Shown here piece after piece: positions 20,691-28,057 of a stretch of DNA of 64,000 nucleotides (positions are counted from its first letter, which is position 1; each line of letters opens with the position of its first letter). The notes beneath the pieces were generated by a model. It searched no databases. It was not told where the DNA came from and saw only the letters and a program-made list of their open reading frames with translations. The position numbers and the translations under genes were made by a program. This DNA comes from Schmidtea polychroa. Lineage: Eukaryota. Where the stretch lies: assembly GCA_044892525.1 (NCBI GenBank), contig CM097885.1, positions 6,140,001 through 6,204,000 of the forward strand, in the 5' to 3' direction.

Positions 20691-22289
20691 TATTAAATAA
20701 ATTTTAATATCCTTCTGAATTATTAGCAGTTATTATTAAGAAGATGATATTGAAGATATATTCGTACTTAATTTCGAAATTCCTCTCGAATATTATGCCT
20801 AGAAAATAGAGCACGAGTTGATTACATGAAGGACATAAAGGACAAAATTTGAAGTGAAGTTGCATTTCCAAGCCAAAGTAATTATTATATCGAAACAAAG
20901 TGAGACTGACCGACCATTTCAAAATCAATGGTCAATGTGGTAAACATCACAGTGTGATAGATCAAAAACAAATGTTCCAAATGCTTTCAGATTTTTAAAC
21001 CTTTTGACCTTTAAAGGGTATAATTGAAAGCCTCGCAACATTTAAAAAAATCCATTGACGGATTCCGTCGATTCCTTTTCTCAAGACCTTAAAATCACGA
21101 ACAAGGGAATTCTATTGGAGTCATGGTATTGTAATACAGATATTCTACTATACTACGTTGTGCCCACCAGAATTGTCTAATAATGATGAAAACAAAACAA
21201 AAAACGTCAAATTTAGGTGAAAATCCGATAAAATTGAAGAGTAATTTATAATAGTGAAACTAAGTGCAACATTTTATCAGTGATTTCTACACCGGAGGAT
21301 TTAATGTAATCCGTTAGATCGACCGTCACATGCCAAGGACCAATTGATGTCATCACATTGCAACAATTGCTTAACACCTCATTTGACCAATTGCTTCGTC
21401 CAATACAGAAGCCAATTAGTAAATTCTACACTGGATCATTTACAATCTCATCCATCGGAACATCAATATGAAATGTACAAAACATGAAAACAAAATCAGT
21501 ATCTCCGAACTATCAGAGGTCACGTGGAAAATATAAAAAAAGTATGAAAAATGCCAGAAGCAGAAATGGAAAAAATGACAAATTATCCCGAGTGCCGAAA
21601 GTAGTAGGATGTGTCGCCTCCAGGACATGTCACATCCAGGACACCCCCTACCCCCCAAGGTCAAGGTCAAATTTTTTGAGGTCAAGGTCAATTTTTTATC
21701 CCCTCGAATACATCAACTGAAAATTTAACAAGGTTAGTCACACAAATCGAATTCTGAAATCAAACAAATGCATTTAATAAAAATTAAAATCATCGACATA
21801 CACAACCGCCGCCTGCTCGCCCGCCCCGAAGGGGCTGGCGCGGTAGTTTGTAAATTTGGTTTAGTTTGAATATTATTATTTGAAACATAGTTTTATTATT
21901 TACAATATTCAAAGTATTAATAACAAAGGTAAAGAAATAAATGTTTATTAAATGTATATAGTATGATACTCATTAATATACATTGAACATGCTTTACATT
22001 TGCGAACATTTTAAATTTGATTTTTAAGGATTACCTTCGATAGATTTTATTGAATAATGGTTCATTAGAAAGGTCTTGAAGAGCTCTATCCAATGGTTAT
22101 ATATTTGAAGATGTAATGTTTGTATACAATATAGTAAGTATTATTATTTTTATTAACAAACTACATCCTAATAAAATACTTTTACACATCAAATTATTAA
22201 AAAAAAAGCCGATAATTATAAAACGTAAAAGAGACTTTACAATAATTTCTATTTTACAAAAATTCAAACAAGTCTGATCACCGAATTAA

Positions 22290-25200
22290 ATTAATCTTGT
22301 AGATGTTGATTGATGAGATCCGGATCTGCTCCTGATTGAATATCATTATCGTCATCATCAATGACATCAACCCCTAAATAATGACCATATGCAAAACTAG
22401 AGTTTTTCTCTACTCAAGCTCTTTTATCATCATGATTAGTTAAAGCAATCTTTGAGTTTTTAAAGGTAAAAAGCTGATGATTTCGGGTTCCTATTCTAGT
22501 CTGAGGTACAGAAATAACTGTGTTGTTGTTGTAACAGTCTAAATAGGATTGATGTTTTATATCTGTACCTGGTAATTTTACGCCCTTAGCTCTCATAGTA
22601 GATTTATTTCCTAAAAGACTGTAGCACTTTGGTCGCAAGAAAACCCACTCACTATATCCTACACCCTTACTCTCATCCTTAAACTTTCCTATAACTGAGT
22701 CGAGTCTCCTATAATATAAAGGATGAGAGGGATCATAATTTGAGGTGTCAAGCTTTACATTTTTGACCTCTAAGAATAAACTATCGGTATCACCCGCAAC
22801 TATATTTATATCACAGTTAAACTGACTCCTATATTTTGATAATTCTATGTACTGTAATTGATACATCCTTAGTTTGGATAAATCCAGCACTGATTGTCCG
22901 ATGTAGCTGGGTCTATCCAAACATATAGACTCCTTATTGAGATGTACACCAAAAAGATCATCATCAATTTTTATGGTTTTTCTAAATGATGGTTTTGATG
23001 AATATGTAATTAATTTTTCCGCGGAATTACATAGTCGTAAATTTAATCTCTTCTTAAGGTTTTCAACGGATTTACTGTACAAGCTATTATTATAAAATTT
23101 GAATAAATCTCTGTACAGTTCACTGCTTGCTTCAGCTCTTAGCTGTGTATTTTTATTTGTATAATTTTTAAAAATCGGTGCTTGCTTGAATTTTGTAGCC
23201 CTATGGATATGTACAACTTTGGCACCAAGAGACAAATAAAGCTTGAGAAGCCTCCAATGAAGAACATGGTTCTTCTTTGGCCAATGCGTGAGCATCAACT
23301 TCTCAACTTTCGAACCAGGCGGGTTCTAGACCATTGTATGCAATGGCCTTGGCATGGAATTGTTGGAAATAGTCCGCAAGGAGGAATACATCCAATTTTT
23401 GATAAGTTAACATATAGTCAGCCAATTTAGTACAACGTTGTTGAGTCCAAATAAGTTGAGCCTTAGCATACTCATCTTCAGTAACACCAGACCAAATAGG
23501 AGGCAATTCATAAGTGGTTTCAAGTACATCCAAATCAGTCGCATAATCATAAGGAAATATGGCTTTAGCATCTATTATTAGCCTATCAAAAACCGACGAA
23601 GTCAAAGGAAGATCAGTTAGAGTTTTTACAGCCTTAGCCAAAGAACAATTAACAAATTGCATGCTGTCGATAAAACGAACAGCTAATTTTTTAATGTGAA
23701 CAATCATCGAGATAAATTTCTCTGTGCTTGTGGGTATTATATCCAAATTCCAAGAAGGAAAGCCATTGAGACCATATTTTAAAATAAGTGTAAGTCGTAG
23801 CCTCGTAAATTATGAAATACAATCGGCAACTGTTTATAAATTCTGCGAGCCATATTACATTTCCTACAGGCTGCACCGAGATAATTATCAGTAAAATGGT
23901 CATGATCTCGAACAGCAAGGGCTAAAACCTTCTTGCAAAGATAGCAGTTCCTACAAGATTTGAATTGTCGTTCCTCAGCAAAAGTCATAGGTCCTAACCG
24001 TTTTTTCCCTTCAAGCTCATAATAAGGTAGGACAATTGTGACAGCAATTTGCTCTACTTTTTTAAGAAATTGAGGTATACAATCAAGACCATAAAACTCG
24101 TAATACGATTTTCTATTGTTAAGATTATTTATTAATAAAAGACCTGCTGAAATAGGTAAATGTATTTTATGATGTTTAACATCTTTAGGTAAAACCGATT
24201 CAAAATCGGCGTAAATAACAAAGGGTGGGGTGATTCTCTTTGAATGATTTTGAAACTCTAAATATTTATTTTCGGGTAAAGTGTAAAGGGTTGTACCCGT
24301 TTGATTTTTACTGCATAGGGCCACATGTTTAGTGAAAGCATTGTCTATTCGAAAACCGTTAAGACAATGTGGGCACCATTTGCATCTTATTTGAATACTA
24401 CAGTCATTACGATGGCAGTTCATTAAACGTGTAATGTTGGTCACTGCGGTGTAATGATAATTATCCTTATTTTCCAAGAGTAATAAATAAATTGGAGTAC
24501 CGCCAGTAACCGTTGATCTGTGAATTATACTTAAGTGGGGGTGTTTAAAAACATAGTCATTAGGAACCTGATCATCATCTTAAGTTTAAGTCTAAATTTT
24601 TCTTTTCGAATTTAGGTATATTACACAATTTCATCGGACAATCCGTGACTTCATTGTAATTAAGAATATTTAAAAGATTTTCATATTTTGAAACTCTTTC
24701 AGGGTGGCTACCTATTTCATCTTTTTTCAAGAGCGCGAGAATACTATAAAGAAAACACTTATGATCCTTATTTTTAACAATTATAATTGCTCCTTTAGAT
24801 TTCAAATCTGCAGGTGTACGAATGTAACTATGACCAGATAGGCGACAAATAGGAGCAAATTTAGTCAGAATGAAATCGATCTCTAAGATATTAATTACTC
24901 TCCAGCCACTACCTAAATAGGTAAACTTTTCAATTTTTTCGTTTAACTTATTAATCCCCTCAATTAAAAAGTTATCCGAAAAGATCTCGGCTTTATTTGA
25001 AAAGTAGTTGTCACGGATTTCCCCATCTTTTTCAAATCTTATAATAGCGAATTGAATTTTGACGCTACCCATGTTATTTATTTCAGATGTTAACTTTTCA
25101 GTGATCCTATCTGTTATTATAATTTTTATTAATTGTGAATCGGCAATATCAAATCGAATAGTTCGATTGGCGCCATTTAAATTTGATTCTATTATCGGCT

Positions 25201-25639
25201 CAATCGCTAAAGATGATCCACCTATTTGATTTATAGTATTTATAGTATTATCATTATTTATATTTTCATTTATAGTATTTATAGTATTAATATTATCATT
25301 TATAATATCATGATTTATAGTATATATAATATTATTACATTCGTCATCACTGAGTAGAATGGCTTCATTTTTAATAATTTCGTCGTCACTGATCTCAATG
25401 ACTTCAGTTTTTATAATTTTATTTTTAATTTTAGACACCCTATGTTCAGCAGGTCTTTTGTTAGATTTCTTTTTTGTGTTATTATTTAAAATATTTACAA
25501 TTTCAATGTTATTCTTATTTATTATTTTAAACAGTTCTTTTTTATTTGTTTTGAAAGAATTTAAGTGCTGAGAATGTTGACTATAAAATTCCTTATACCT
25601 TACACTCTGGGAAGTTTTGCATATGGGGCAAATAAACAT
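22290..25639 (-). pseudogene. Protein-primed family B DNA polymerase, disrupted
   Basis: ORFs 24575-25639, 23779-24477, 23303-23746 and 22414-23298 align in order to the intact pPolB at 58609-62643 (PFVIYADFES, RDHDH...AACRKCN, FHNLRGYD, AGDTDS, GKFKDE, DDKR). It has frameshifts and a deletion of about 0.4 kb near 23318 (between GLEP and EKLMLTHW) that removes the YIDINNLYG motif A. Confidence 0.93.
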
Positions 25640-25834
25640 TTAGTATTTTATAATAAATTTATTAGTTTAATTATATTTTATTTTAATTACACAAATAATA
25701 TTTCCAATTTTTTTAATTTTAAATTCAATAATTTAATTTAATTTTTAATTTTTTAATATTTTATTTTATAAAAAAAACGTTTTTTATATTTTAAATATTT
25801 TTTTTTAATTTTAAATTTTAAATCTAATTAAATA

Positions 25835-26854: not shown

Positions 26855-27088
26855 GATTCATGATTCATACAATTTTGTATCAGCTTTTATACTTGCATAA
26901 TATTTGTCTGTTCAAACTTATTAATATTTTGTTTTGTGTAGGTATTTGGTGTAGGAATTTGATGTAGCCATAACAATTATTATTATTATTATTATTATTA
27001 TTATTATTATTATTATTATTATTATTATTAATATTATTATTATTATTATTATTATTATTATTATTATTATTATTATTATTATTATTAT

Positions 27089-27373
27089 TTGTGCTTCTCA
27101 AAGGACATTGTTTACCAAATTACTGGCACAAGATGTGACGCATCGTACATAGGCGAAGCACATAATGTTCCAAACATGACTCAACGAACACGTCAAAACC
27201 AAAACAAGCAATTATCACGAACACTGGAAAAAAGTGCACAAATCAGCACTACTCTTACACAGAACAAAATGCAAAATGTTACAAGATGCGTTCAAAAATT
27301 CAATGCAAAGATTAGCCGGGGAGACTCTTTACATAAAAAACTTAAACCGGCCATCAACATTCAACTAAATTAA
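27089..27373 (+). mobile_element. Penelope-like GIY-YIG remnant (mirror copy)
   Basis: Inverted duplicate of 25835-26119. Confidence 0.75.
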
Positions 27374-28057
27374 TATATAATTAGATTTAAAATTTAAAAT
27401 TAAAAAAAAATATTTAAAATATAAAAAACGTTTTTTTTATAAAATAAAATATTAAAAAATTAAAAATTAAATTAAATTATTGAATTTAAAATTTAAAAAA
27501 TTGGAAATATTATTTGTGTAATTAAAATAAAATATAATTAAACTAATAAATTTATTATAAAATACTAAATGTTTATTTGCCCCATATGCAAAACTTCCCA
27601 GAGTGTAAGGTATAAGGAATTTTATAGTCAACATTCTCAGCACTTAAATTCTTTCAAAACAAATAAAAAAGAACTGTTTAAAATAATAAATAAGAATAAC
27701 ATTGAAATTGTAAATATTTTAAATAATAACACAAAAAAGAAATCTAACAAAAGACCTGCTGAACATAGGGTGTCTAAAATTAAAAATAAAATTATAAAAA
27801 CTGAAGTCATTGAGATCAGTGACGACGAAATTATTAAAAATGAAGTCATTCTACTCAGTGATGACGAATGTAATAATATTATATATACTATAAATCATTT
27901 TGAGTTGATGTATTTGAGTGGGTAAAAAATGTTTTTGACCTTGACCTTAAAAAATTTGCCATTGACCTTAGAATTTGACCTTAACAAATTTGACCTTGAC
28001 CTTGATGGGTAGGTGGTAGGGGGTGTCCTGGAGGTGACACATCCTACTACTGCCGAA

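Follow-up and report, generated by a model that had tools for sequence, protein, structure and literature searches.

The 64-kb window (the whole stretch of 64,000 nt that was analysed) contains a Maverick/Polinton insertion with matching ends, element 1, which spans 6452 bp from position 21600 (GCCGAA/AGTAGT) to position 28051 (ACTACT/GCCGAA). Its terminal motif AGTAGTAG lies at 21600 and the complement ends at 28051; (AG)n or (AGT)n is given as the Maverick terminal motif in the accessible text of PMC8097293. A sister element, element 2, runs to the end of the window and was used for comparison. The following features were assigned:

21594..21599, +, left TSD GCCGAA
21600..21725, +, left TIR with AGTAGT end, two 16-nt units, C-run and AAGGTCA repeats
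21798..21852, no strand, GC-rich hairpin in the AT-rich stretch between left TIR and polymerase end
22312..22413, -, pPolB C-terminal tail past a premature stop at 22414-22416
22414..23325, -, pPolB piece 4, carrying motifs B and C; compared with element 2, 39 nt are deleted in frame near 22749
23303..23809, -, pPolB piece 3, bounded near 23324 by a 401-nt deletion through which motif A is lost
23779..24579, -, pPolB piece 2, comprising the exonuclease I region and an endonuclease-VII-like Zn domain, broken off by a 1-nt frameshift near 23788
24575..25639, -, pPolB piece 1, the N-terminal region, broken off near 24577 by a frameshifting deletion of 41 nt
25310..26217, no strand, arm 1 of an inverted duplication, containing the 5' end of pPolB, AT-rich DNA upstream of it, a GIY-YIG remnant and an AAT repeat
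25840..26119, -, copy 1 of a broken remnant of a Penelope-like GIY-YIG endonuclease (by comparison with P0241)
26119..26205, no strand, (AAT)n microsatellite closing arm 1 on its outer side
26433..26854, -, predicted secreted-peptide-like gene, three exons, 70 codons (from splice sites and frames)
26976..27089, no strand, (ATT)n microsatellite at the first junction of the inverted duplication
26991..27898, no strand, arm 2, which reaches the right TIR on its inner side and overlaps it by 2 nt
27089..27368, +, broken GIY-YIG remnant, copy 2
27569..27898, +, second pPolB 5' end, truncated, 110 codons, its frame continuing into the TIR to 27925
27897..28051, -, right TIR with ACTACT at its end
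28052..28057, +, right TSD GCCGAA
56972..64000, no strand, element 2 (comparison), sister Maverick running to the window end
58609-62646, -, element 2 pPolB, intact, 1345 aa

The termini, the exact TSD and the length reported in an earlier note on this DNA were all re-found. Given the base composition at the locus, a 6-bp match has a chance probability of p ~6e-4, and here the TSD flanks two mutually matching ends. The TIRs claimed in the same note are present, albeit short (126 and 155 bp) and not perfectly matched: 109 bases align with 7 mismatches, and there are four internal gaps of 16, 7, 34 and 5 nt. The right TIR was probably cut short. The ends share their anatomy with those of elements 2 and 3 but differ from them in sequence, and no second copy of element 1 was detected within the 64-kb window. 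The hairpin folds at -26.2 kcal/mol on the plus strand, with 2 of 200 shuffled sequences folding equally well. Comparison of 21594-22420 with Rfam gave three matches, all far under the gathering score and taken as chance, and ARAGORN returned no gene.

Identification of the element 1 polymerase rests on alignment to element 2 and on a tree instead of Pfam, which gave only weak matches to the pieces, including PF02945 for the Zn domain of piece 2 (E=0.0027, under the cut-off). The pieces are 48-73% identical to the pPolB of element 2, and the tree places the two as sisters inside the Polinton pPolBs. The gene is not intact; it consists of four open pieces from which about 130 residues, motif A included, are gone. 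Three frameshifting deletions (41, 1 and 401 nt) were found, the 401-nt one removing motif A, together with a 39-nt in-frame deletion and one premature stop. Residues 803-932 of the element 2 protein, with the motif-A string at 859, have no counterpart in element 1, so that it does not encode a whole polymerase carrying all three of motifs A, B and C. By comparison, motif A was covered in all 17 fetched loci spanning more than 800 polymerase residues, and 12 of these 17 showed a single frame without stops; nematode pPolBs retain all six catalytic motifs according to the accessible text of 10.1101/2023.08.22.554363. The element 1 polymerase is therefore dead, a pseudogene, and it is predicted that this copy cannot drive its own replication. 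The two elements are not separated by their changes at invariant residues, which number 6 of 117 in element 1 and 4 of 117 in element 2 (p=0.75).

None of the other core genes was recovered. Marker proteins from relatives (21 in total, comprising integrase, ATPase, protease, major and minor capsid, TBP-like and others) had no tblastn match in the 64-kb window at E<0.01, and eight profile HMMs searched against the six frames of element 1 gave no match at E<=1. In a distant control locus three of the eight profiles (integrase, protease and ATPase) recovered their gene. The capsid profile missed this locus, so that the exclusion covers close capsid relatives only; element 1 has no free ORF of capsid size. 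No rve integrase was found in element 1, while those of the control locus and of a Gypsy element in the window were recovered. These searches uphold the earlier claim that integrase, packaging ATPase, protease and capsid genes, both major and minor, are absent. At 6452 bp, element 1 also falls short of the 15-20 kb length range of Polintons (PMC4028283). The further statement that pPolB is the only Polinton gene inside holds; the element additionally carries an inverted duplication, two GIY-YIG remnants, a copy of the pPolB 5' end and an intron-bearing gene.

The inverted duplication, overlooked in the first reading, comprises 908 nt (25310-26217 and 26991-27898). All pPolB lesions lie outside it. 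TIR similarity stops at position 27897 and arm 2 at position 27898, and a rearrangement junction is visible at the right TIR. The arms differ by five substitutions, with no indel outside the microsatellite. Divergence between them amounts to 5 of 809 sites versus 7 of 109 between the TIRs (Fisher p=1.3e-4), a divergence roughly tenfold lower for the arms. Because the arms differ far less than the TIRs, the duplication is likely younger than the insertion and likely took the place of the gene block. Moreover, a cysteine codon is common to arm 2 and the protein P0241 and is absent from arm 1, which implies that arm 2 was not copied from the present arm 1.

Both arms include the GIY-YIG remnant, for which P0241, 62-67% identical, was the one relative found by exhaustive search; a word-indexed search and Pfam gave no match. 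P0241 itself matches PF01541 just under the cut-off (E=4e-4). Penelope-like endonucleases have two cysteines between GIY and YIG and an R-H-E-N core (PMC8557442). The spacing and the H, E and N positions of the remnant agree with P0241, which has both cysteines, and are partly mutated in element 1. The likeness to the Penelope-like type extends to the microsatellite at the junction, whereas element 1 has a broken 0.3-kb piece and no ORF for a linked reverse transcriptase. Since its breaks are common to both arms, the remnant was broken before the duplication. Penelope-like elements form inverted structures (PMC8557442), and such an element was considered as maker of the mirror arms. It was rejected, as the breaks of the remnant are found in both arms and the arms reach 0.8 kb into Maverick DNA.

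Between the arms lies the predicted peptide gene, whose spliced reading was inferred by hand: exons 26854-26755, 26595-26539 and 26488-26433 are separated by GT-AG introns of 159 and 50 nt. Exon 1 and a Cys-rich frame had no Pfam match, and the Atlas search gave none either. As in the intron-bearing cargo of nematode Mavericks (10.1101/2022.07.12.499685), a host-like gene with introns would here sit inside a TSD-bounded element; unlike that cargo, it is a predicted 70-codon secreted peptide for which no relative was found.

The second element was re-found beginning at 56972, directly after TCAATG. Its part inside the window consists of 1637 bp of end repeats, a 4.1-kb polymerase frame and 1288 bp upstream, which hold non-coding repeats only. 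It had been put forward as compatible with a gene-poor lineage, for which it is uninformative because the window ends about 1.3 kb upstream of the polymerase. A quick tree pairs elements 1 and 2 as sisters (SH-aLRT 100) inside a clade of 57 rows (SH-aLRT 96) that also contains the fetched loci L004, L005, L019 and L031. Core Polinton genes were present in six of the seven relatives, among 54 fetched loci, that extend at least 2.2 kb beyond the polymerase, and these occur at 46-61% polymerase identity. L004 and L005 (50% and 46% identical to element 2) are autonomous Polintons of adintovirus type from the same pPolB clade and, like element 1, have an endonuclease-VII-like Zn domain. Both encode an rve integrase, an A32-like ATPase and a TBP-like protein, besides a look-alike of the double-jelly-roll capsid (score 0.97). 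They are at least 13-14 kb long and carry these genes 3' of the polymerase, whereas element 1 has none of them and no working polymerase. Weak Pfam matches indicate an adenain-like protease in L031 and L040, and the gene block lies 3' of the polymerase in L004, L005, L019, L031 and L040. The polymerase 3' end of element 1 faces the left TIR at a distance of 0.7 kb, and hence the lost block must have lain upstream, a layout seen in none of the fetched loci. L027 shows the same arrangement of polymerase 3' end to terminus, and its available DNA stops short of the upstream side. Members of protein cluster P0004, among the nearest, are mostly on 11-16 kb contigs. A scan of IMG/VR gave 80 pattern matches, none of them a relative. 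Of 24 sequencing runs listed in a word search, 6, from two studies, contained at least half of the words, and no RNA run was listed among the holders; the conclusions do not draw on these runs. For the host, the best DDX51 matches were flatworm proteins at 33-38% identity, which indicates a fast-evolving animal and nothing narrower.

Altogether, element 1 is most probably a decayed copy of the ordinary sort rather than a novel minimal replicon. We assign a probability of about 0.72 to the reading that it was a normal-sized Maverick, its polymerase now dead, that lost its core genes in one recent inverted duplication plus deletion, probably after integration. The mirror duplication beside the right TIR likely marks where the other genes were lost. 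Of the two readings previously offered, the junction at the right TIR supports the deletion product, which was probably formed in place, its putative gene loss being judged from relatives. The streamlined replicon, comparable to a linear plasmid, would need a functional polymerase and was rejected given the loss of motif A, the frameshifts and the stop. Rightward DNA synthesis would have left the (ATT)n tract for its complement, the (AAT)n tract lying 0.8 kb back; 0.9 kb would then have been copied in reverse, until a second switch via 2-nt microhomology led into the right TIR. The DNA skipped in between may have measured 8-10 kb, as estimated from relatives. The TSD would go back to the first insertion, carried out by the integrase of the element itself or of a sibling, and element 1 would be mobile only if a helper still recognises its ends. 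Counting against gene loss are the upstream position that it requires of the block and the lack of a core gene in the visible DNA of both sisters, 1 and 2. A decay of about 0.6% would be expected to yield one premature stop, whereas at the 3% implied by the TIR difference a single stop has p=0.035. The stop count and the invariant sites are thus somewhat at odds with the TIR clock, which suggests that the TIRs may have differed already at insertion and weakens the dating of the event as in place. Gene conversion between the mirror arms would likewise give them a young look.

The same counts suggest recent decay, nearer to the arm than to the TIR divergence, and together with the intact ends and TSD they favour a helper-dependent defective derivative. 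In this unlikely alternative, which likens element 1 to a defective-interfering virus genome, the mirror would have been made during protein-primed, strand-displacing replication of the free element and the 6.5-kb product integrated by the integrase of a helper, with sibling copies possible. Butterfly Polintons without polB are apparently still mobile, as judged from the accessible text of 10.1101/2025.02.07.637071. The tenfold greater similarity of the arms than of the TIRs argues against such an origin, as does the absence of a second copy within 64 kb. Furthermore, pure copy-back mirrors the left end, whereas the mirror of element 1 is internal and needs two template switches. Highly improbable is an artefact, namely a whole-genome-amplification chimera or an assembly misjoin. 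Amplification of tiny animals reportedly gives inverted chimeric reads (PMC13265396, PMC6218980). However, the five substitutions, the lack of indels outside the microsatellite and the P0241-shared cysteine codon in arm 2 only are at odds with it; a chimera would also need a return to the right TIR with its matching TSD, and the polymerase lesions lie outside the duplication.

We regard it as quite improbable that the branch of elements 1 and 2 never has integrase or capsid genes of its own and acts as the replicating module on which helper or gene-less elements draw, with element 1 a decayed member that lost little in the rearrangement. The sister relationship, the common layout of polymerase 3' end to TIR and the visible DNA free of core genes are consistent with this, as are the intact polymerase of element 2 with its non-coding upstream repeats and the 4-7 kb contigs carrying several members of the nearest clusters, P0001-P0003. 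Against it, the pair nests among relatives bearing core genes, marker-free flanks of 1-1.6 kb beside the polymerase are common in the fetched loci, and the polymerase of element 1 itself is dead. Metagenome assembly yields short contigs anyway, and mates in P0001 reach 11-12.6 kb. No described polymerase-only Polinton family was found in the mainly open-access literature, which is not proof of absence.

Kapitonov and Jurka reportedly described in 2006 multi-copy non-autonomous Polintons that keep their ends and have partly lost their machinery. As far as the accessible texts go, 96% of vertebrate Mavericks are degraded (PMC8097293), and in C. elegans pPolB and TIR occur without integrase at 10 loci (PMC11414722). 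Element 1 resembles the fossil Mavericks in the accessible parts of these sources in its (AGT)2...(ACT)2 ends, its 6-bp TSD, its pPolB broken by frameshifts and stops and its missing core genes. Unlike them, it keeps both ends and the TSD around 6.5 kb and shows a likely deletion junction, the 908-nt inverted duplication. With the polB-less butterfly Polintons, in the accessible part of 10.1101/2025.02.07.637071, it has in common that the ends are kept, part of the machinery is gone and helpers would be needed; those are multi-copy, whereas element 1 is one copy in 64 kb.

As it stands, the significance is small, since most animal Mavericks are broken and polymerase-plus-TIR remnants without integrase are already published. 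Element 1 offers a clean footprint of gene-block loss with both ends kept, consisting of two template switches, one in a microsatellite and one at a 2-nt microhomology, and the small peptide gene with introns deserves attention as possible cargo. It would matter more if the deleted form were multi-copy. Should element 2 prove to end after about 7-8 kb, its polymerase intact and unaccompanied by any further gene, this would point to a helper-dependent polymerase-only lineage, which, if true, makes trans-integration of Mavericks directly testable. The boldest version, improbable in our view, is a defective-interfering-type Maverick formed by two-switch copy-back during protein-primed replication, or else a member of a lineage of polymerase-only helpers whose intact form is element 2. 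The integrase of a sibling would have spread it, and its cargo would be an amidated-peptide-like host gene with introns. If true, Mavericks in an animal genome would be dividing into a replication module on the one hand and carriers of cargo that depend on helpers on the other.

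The two ends of element 1, the Maverick/Polinton copy at 21600-28051, were clearly defined. On the left, AGTAGTAG begins at 21600 after GCCGAA (21594-21599), and on the right CTACTACT runs up to 28051 and is followed by GCCGAA again. The boundaries claimed in the earlier note (AGTAGT...ACTACT ends, a GCCGAA target-site duplication (TSD) and an interval of 6452 bp) are thus borne out. A chance match of the 6-bp TSD has a probability of ~6e-4 at the local base composition, and (AGT)2/(ACT)2 ends flanked by a 6-bp TSD are of the Maverick type described in PMC8097293. Element 1's terminal inverted repeats (TIRs), 126 and 155 bp long, are imperfect: 7 of 109 aligned bases are mismatched, and there are internal gaps of 16, 7, 34 and 5 nt. 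The features of the window are as follows.

1071-2033 and 8567-10162: strongly diverged host genes, a DDX51-like helicase (best matches at 33-38% identity, flatworms first) and an NXF1-like export factor
12578-14896: pieces of a Gypsy-type retrotransposon (protease, RT-RNase H and integrase), with an (AT)n tract interrupting the integrase frame
15962-17400: 13-nt repeat units in tandem, ~96% alike; GC skew extreme
21798-21852: GC-rich hairpin inside element 1
25310-26217 and 26991-27898: arms 1 and 2 of a 908-nt inverted duplication in element 1
26854-26433, minus strand: predicted three-exon gene between the arms
45695-47624: element 3, a 1.9-kb gene-less foldback with Maverick-type ends
~47715-47751: third partial Maverick-type end
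56972 to the window end: element 2, a sister Maverick, beginning just after TCAATG

No core gene was detected beside the protein-primed DNA polymerase (pPolB) of element 1, as had been claimed: tblastn of the window with 21 marker proteins from relatives gave 0 matches, and none of 8 profile HMMs had a match at E<=1 when run against elements 1-3 in all six frames. As a control, the integrase, protease and ATPase profiles detected their genes in the distant metagenome locus L038, and the integrase profile also detected the Gypsy integrase of the window; of the remaining five, those for capsid, TBP and two more did not pass in L038, and that for penton gave a borderline result. Polintons have been defined by pPolB plus integrase (PMC5499653) and described as 15-20 kb long; loss of the set of capsid, protease and ATPase genes is known (PMC4028283; PMC6431247). 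Compared with an autonomous Polinton, element 1 falls outside the group, having 6452 bp, a broken polymerase and no integrase, ATPase, protease or capsid gene that we could find; it fits the class of defective Polinton copies. Such copies are reported as common, 96% of vertebrate Maverick loci being degraded (PMC8097293), and pPolB with TIRs and no integrase is described at 10 C. elegans loci (PMC11414722). A preprint describes Polintons without polB that are seemingly still mobile (10.1101/2025.02.07.637071).

Using the intact 1345-residue pPolB of element 2 as reference, the element 1 polymerase was resolved into four open pieces on the minus strand, in which residues 365-382 and 803-932 of the reference have no counterpart. 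The motif-A string (element-2 residue 859) falls within the second gap. DNA alignment revealed frameshifting net deletions of 41 nt (~24577), 1 nt (~23788) and 401 nt (~23324), an in-frame net deletion of 39 nt near 22749 and one premature stop at 22414-22416. Among the 17 fetched loci spanning >800 polymerase residues, motif A was present in all and a single stop-free frame in 12. Element 1 lacks 26 of the 143 columns invariant among 30 relatives; at the remaining sites, 6/117 are changed in element 1 vs 4/117 in element 2 (p=0.75). A single stop is the expectation at ~0.6% neutral change (1.7 expected per 1%). Judged by these lesions the polymerase is dead, and its decay looks recent. The streamlined replicon envisaged in the earlier note was not borne out: with three frameshifts, a premature stop and motif A lost, a self-replicating element of this kind is excluded for this copy.

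At E<=1e-20 there were 1659 protein matches to the element-2 polymerase, led by metagenome proteins at 50-63% identity. A metagenome scan yielded 54 loci, and a scan of IMG/VR yielded none. In seven of the 54 the sequence extends 2.2 kb or more beyond the polymerase, and core genes were found in six of these (L004, L005, L019, L031, L038, L040); the seventh, L021, carries a phosphatase in their place. L004 (at least 14.0 kb) and L005 (at least 12.9 kb) encode an rve integrase (E 1e-12), an A32-like ATPase and a TBP-like gene (PF00352; L004:11333-11779, E 5e-18; L005:10321-10764, E 2e-17). A 403-residue protein of L004 resembles double-jelly-roll capsids (Atlas score 0.97); it has no Pfam match of its own, and PF21738 is found on 15-65% of the members of its top three Atlas clusters. 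Adenain matches in L031 and L040 were weak. A ubiquitin-conjugating enzyme (L004:13480-13974) and a dual-specificity phosphatase (L021:2926-3234) adjoin element genes in single cases.

A quick maximum-likelihood tree was computed from the pPolB C-terminal region (90 rows, 332 columns), comprising both elements, 54 coverage-filtered proteins chosen from 120 listed and loci covering >200 residues. Adintoviruses are divided into Alpha and Beta classes (PMC8502044), and the tree holds no named reference. Element 1 groups with element 2 as its sister (SH-aLRT 100) within a 57-row clade (SH-aLRT 96) that also encloses L004, L005, L019 and L031. The rows nearest to the two elements are the relative proteins P0001-P0004; contigs of cluster mates reach 12.6 kb (P0001) and 16.3 kb (P0004), and other mates lie on contigs of 4-7 kb. 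In the five close loci with a visible core-gene block, this block lies 3' of the polymerase. In element 1 the polymerase 3' end faces the left TIR, only 0.7 kb away, and therefore a lost block must have lain upstream, an arrangement seen in none of the fetched loci. The block position in the close loci counts against the reading favoured below. Gene order varies in the clade: the ATPase is directly downstream and co-directional in L011, L043 and L045, and L027 has a Maverick-like end 1.5 kb downstream of the polymerase.

The visible 7029 bp of element 2 comprise 1637 bp of end repeats and spacer, the 4.1-kb polymerase frame and 1288 bp upstream. The longest stop-free stretches outside the polymerase are 104 and 58 codons. 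This speaks neither for nor against the gene-poor lineage that the earlier note read from the ~7 kb, since several fetched loci have 1-1.6 kb next to the polymerase in which no marker gene lies. At its start (62646-62712, minus strand) the polymerase frame is already open ahead of the first Met, and the first cysteine of the relatives' N-terminal motif is missing; AG at 62706 is a candidate splice acceptor. A ~24-nt self-complementary word (TAGTTGCATGCTCACTGCAAACTA-like) lies just past the polymerase (58281-58312), and some ten tandem variants lie upstream (62920-63650).

The right third of element 1 is filled by the inverted duplication, which the earlier note had missed. It contains the initial 330 nt of pPolB, AT-rich upstream DNA and a GIY-YIG remnant that is broken. 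Of its two junctions, one is in a microsatellite, with (AAT)n (26119-26205) matched by (ATT)n (26976-27089). The other falls on the right TIR's inner edge: resemblance to the left TIR ends at 27897 and arm 2 at 27898, with an overlap of 2 nt. Since these edges coincide, a single junction best explains both, and the right TIR was probably cut short; for comparison, the end repeats of element 2 span ~1.1 kb and the TIRs given for C. elegans Polintons 744 bp (PMC11414722). Outside the microsatellite the arms differ at 5/809 sites with no indel, vs 7/109 for the TIRs (Fisher p=1.3e-4), so that the duplication would postdate the insertion if, as we assume, the TIRs were identical at insertion. Gene conversion between the arms would also bias this dating. 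If each copy had decayed by 3%, finding at most one stop would have p=0.035, and thus the ends may have differed already at insertion.

P0241 shares 62-67% identity with the GIY-YIG remnant; it carries two cysteines in the stretch from GIY to YIG and matches PF01541 slightly below the cut-off. This spacing is given as a mark of Penelope-like endonucleases, which favour microsatellites (PMC8557442). The predicted gene between the arms has 70 codons (hand count) and two phase-1 introns with GT-AG borders (159 and 50 nt), and runs from a hydrophobic, signal-peptide-like N-terminus through an acidic stretch to KKK-CPRKLC-G-stop. In layout the gene looks like the precursor of an amidated secreted peptide. 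It could also be a longer peptide gene that has been broken, as a Cys/Lys-rich reading continues in another frame. Pfam and Atlas searches found no relatives; nematode Mavericks with intron-bearing cargo have been described (10.1101/2022.07.12.499685).

The ends of element 3 consist of AGTAG, two 16-nt units, a C-run and AAGGTCA and TGACTCA repeats; its mirror symmetry extends ~17 nt past AGTAG, and the flanks are inverted with no direct 6-bp TSD. The end regions of elements 1-3 account for all 28 TCAAGGTCA words of the window, and those of elements 2 and 3 for 12 of its 20 TGACTCA words (regions with either word: 21661-21690, 27936-28005, 45820-45980, 47353-47500, 57065-58045). The words match nuclear-receptor (NR5A/ERR) and AP-1 sites, and are possibly host-factor sites at a replication origin.

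The ends, TSD, lesions, mirror arms and junction positions are read directly from the DNA, and from them we infer the following mechanism. A normal-sized Maverick would have integrated, producing the TSD, with a Penelope-like fragment and a small host-like gene upstream of its polymerase. A template switch at the microsatellite would then have copied ~0.9 kb in reverse, and a second switch into the right TIR would have deleted the remainder; small deletions would have inactivated the polymerase, before or after this event. We assign a probability of about 0.72 to this course of integration followed by gene loss through a two-switch duplication-deletion and polymerase lesions. That the deletion instead arose during replication and the product was integrated by a helper is unlikely. 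Still less probable is a naturally polymerase-only lineage giving rise to both elements; no such family was found in a literature search whose scope excluded supplements and Repbase entries. An artefactual mirror duplication is very improbable: a cysteine codon common to arm 2 and P0241 is lost in arm 1, and a chimera would need to rejoin the correct TIR and TSD. A helper-moved element or a polymerase-only lineage with peptide cargo would be the more interesting case, at odds we consider low. Most likely, element 1 is real but unremarkable: a defective Maverick in which the scar of the deletion can still be read.
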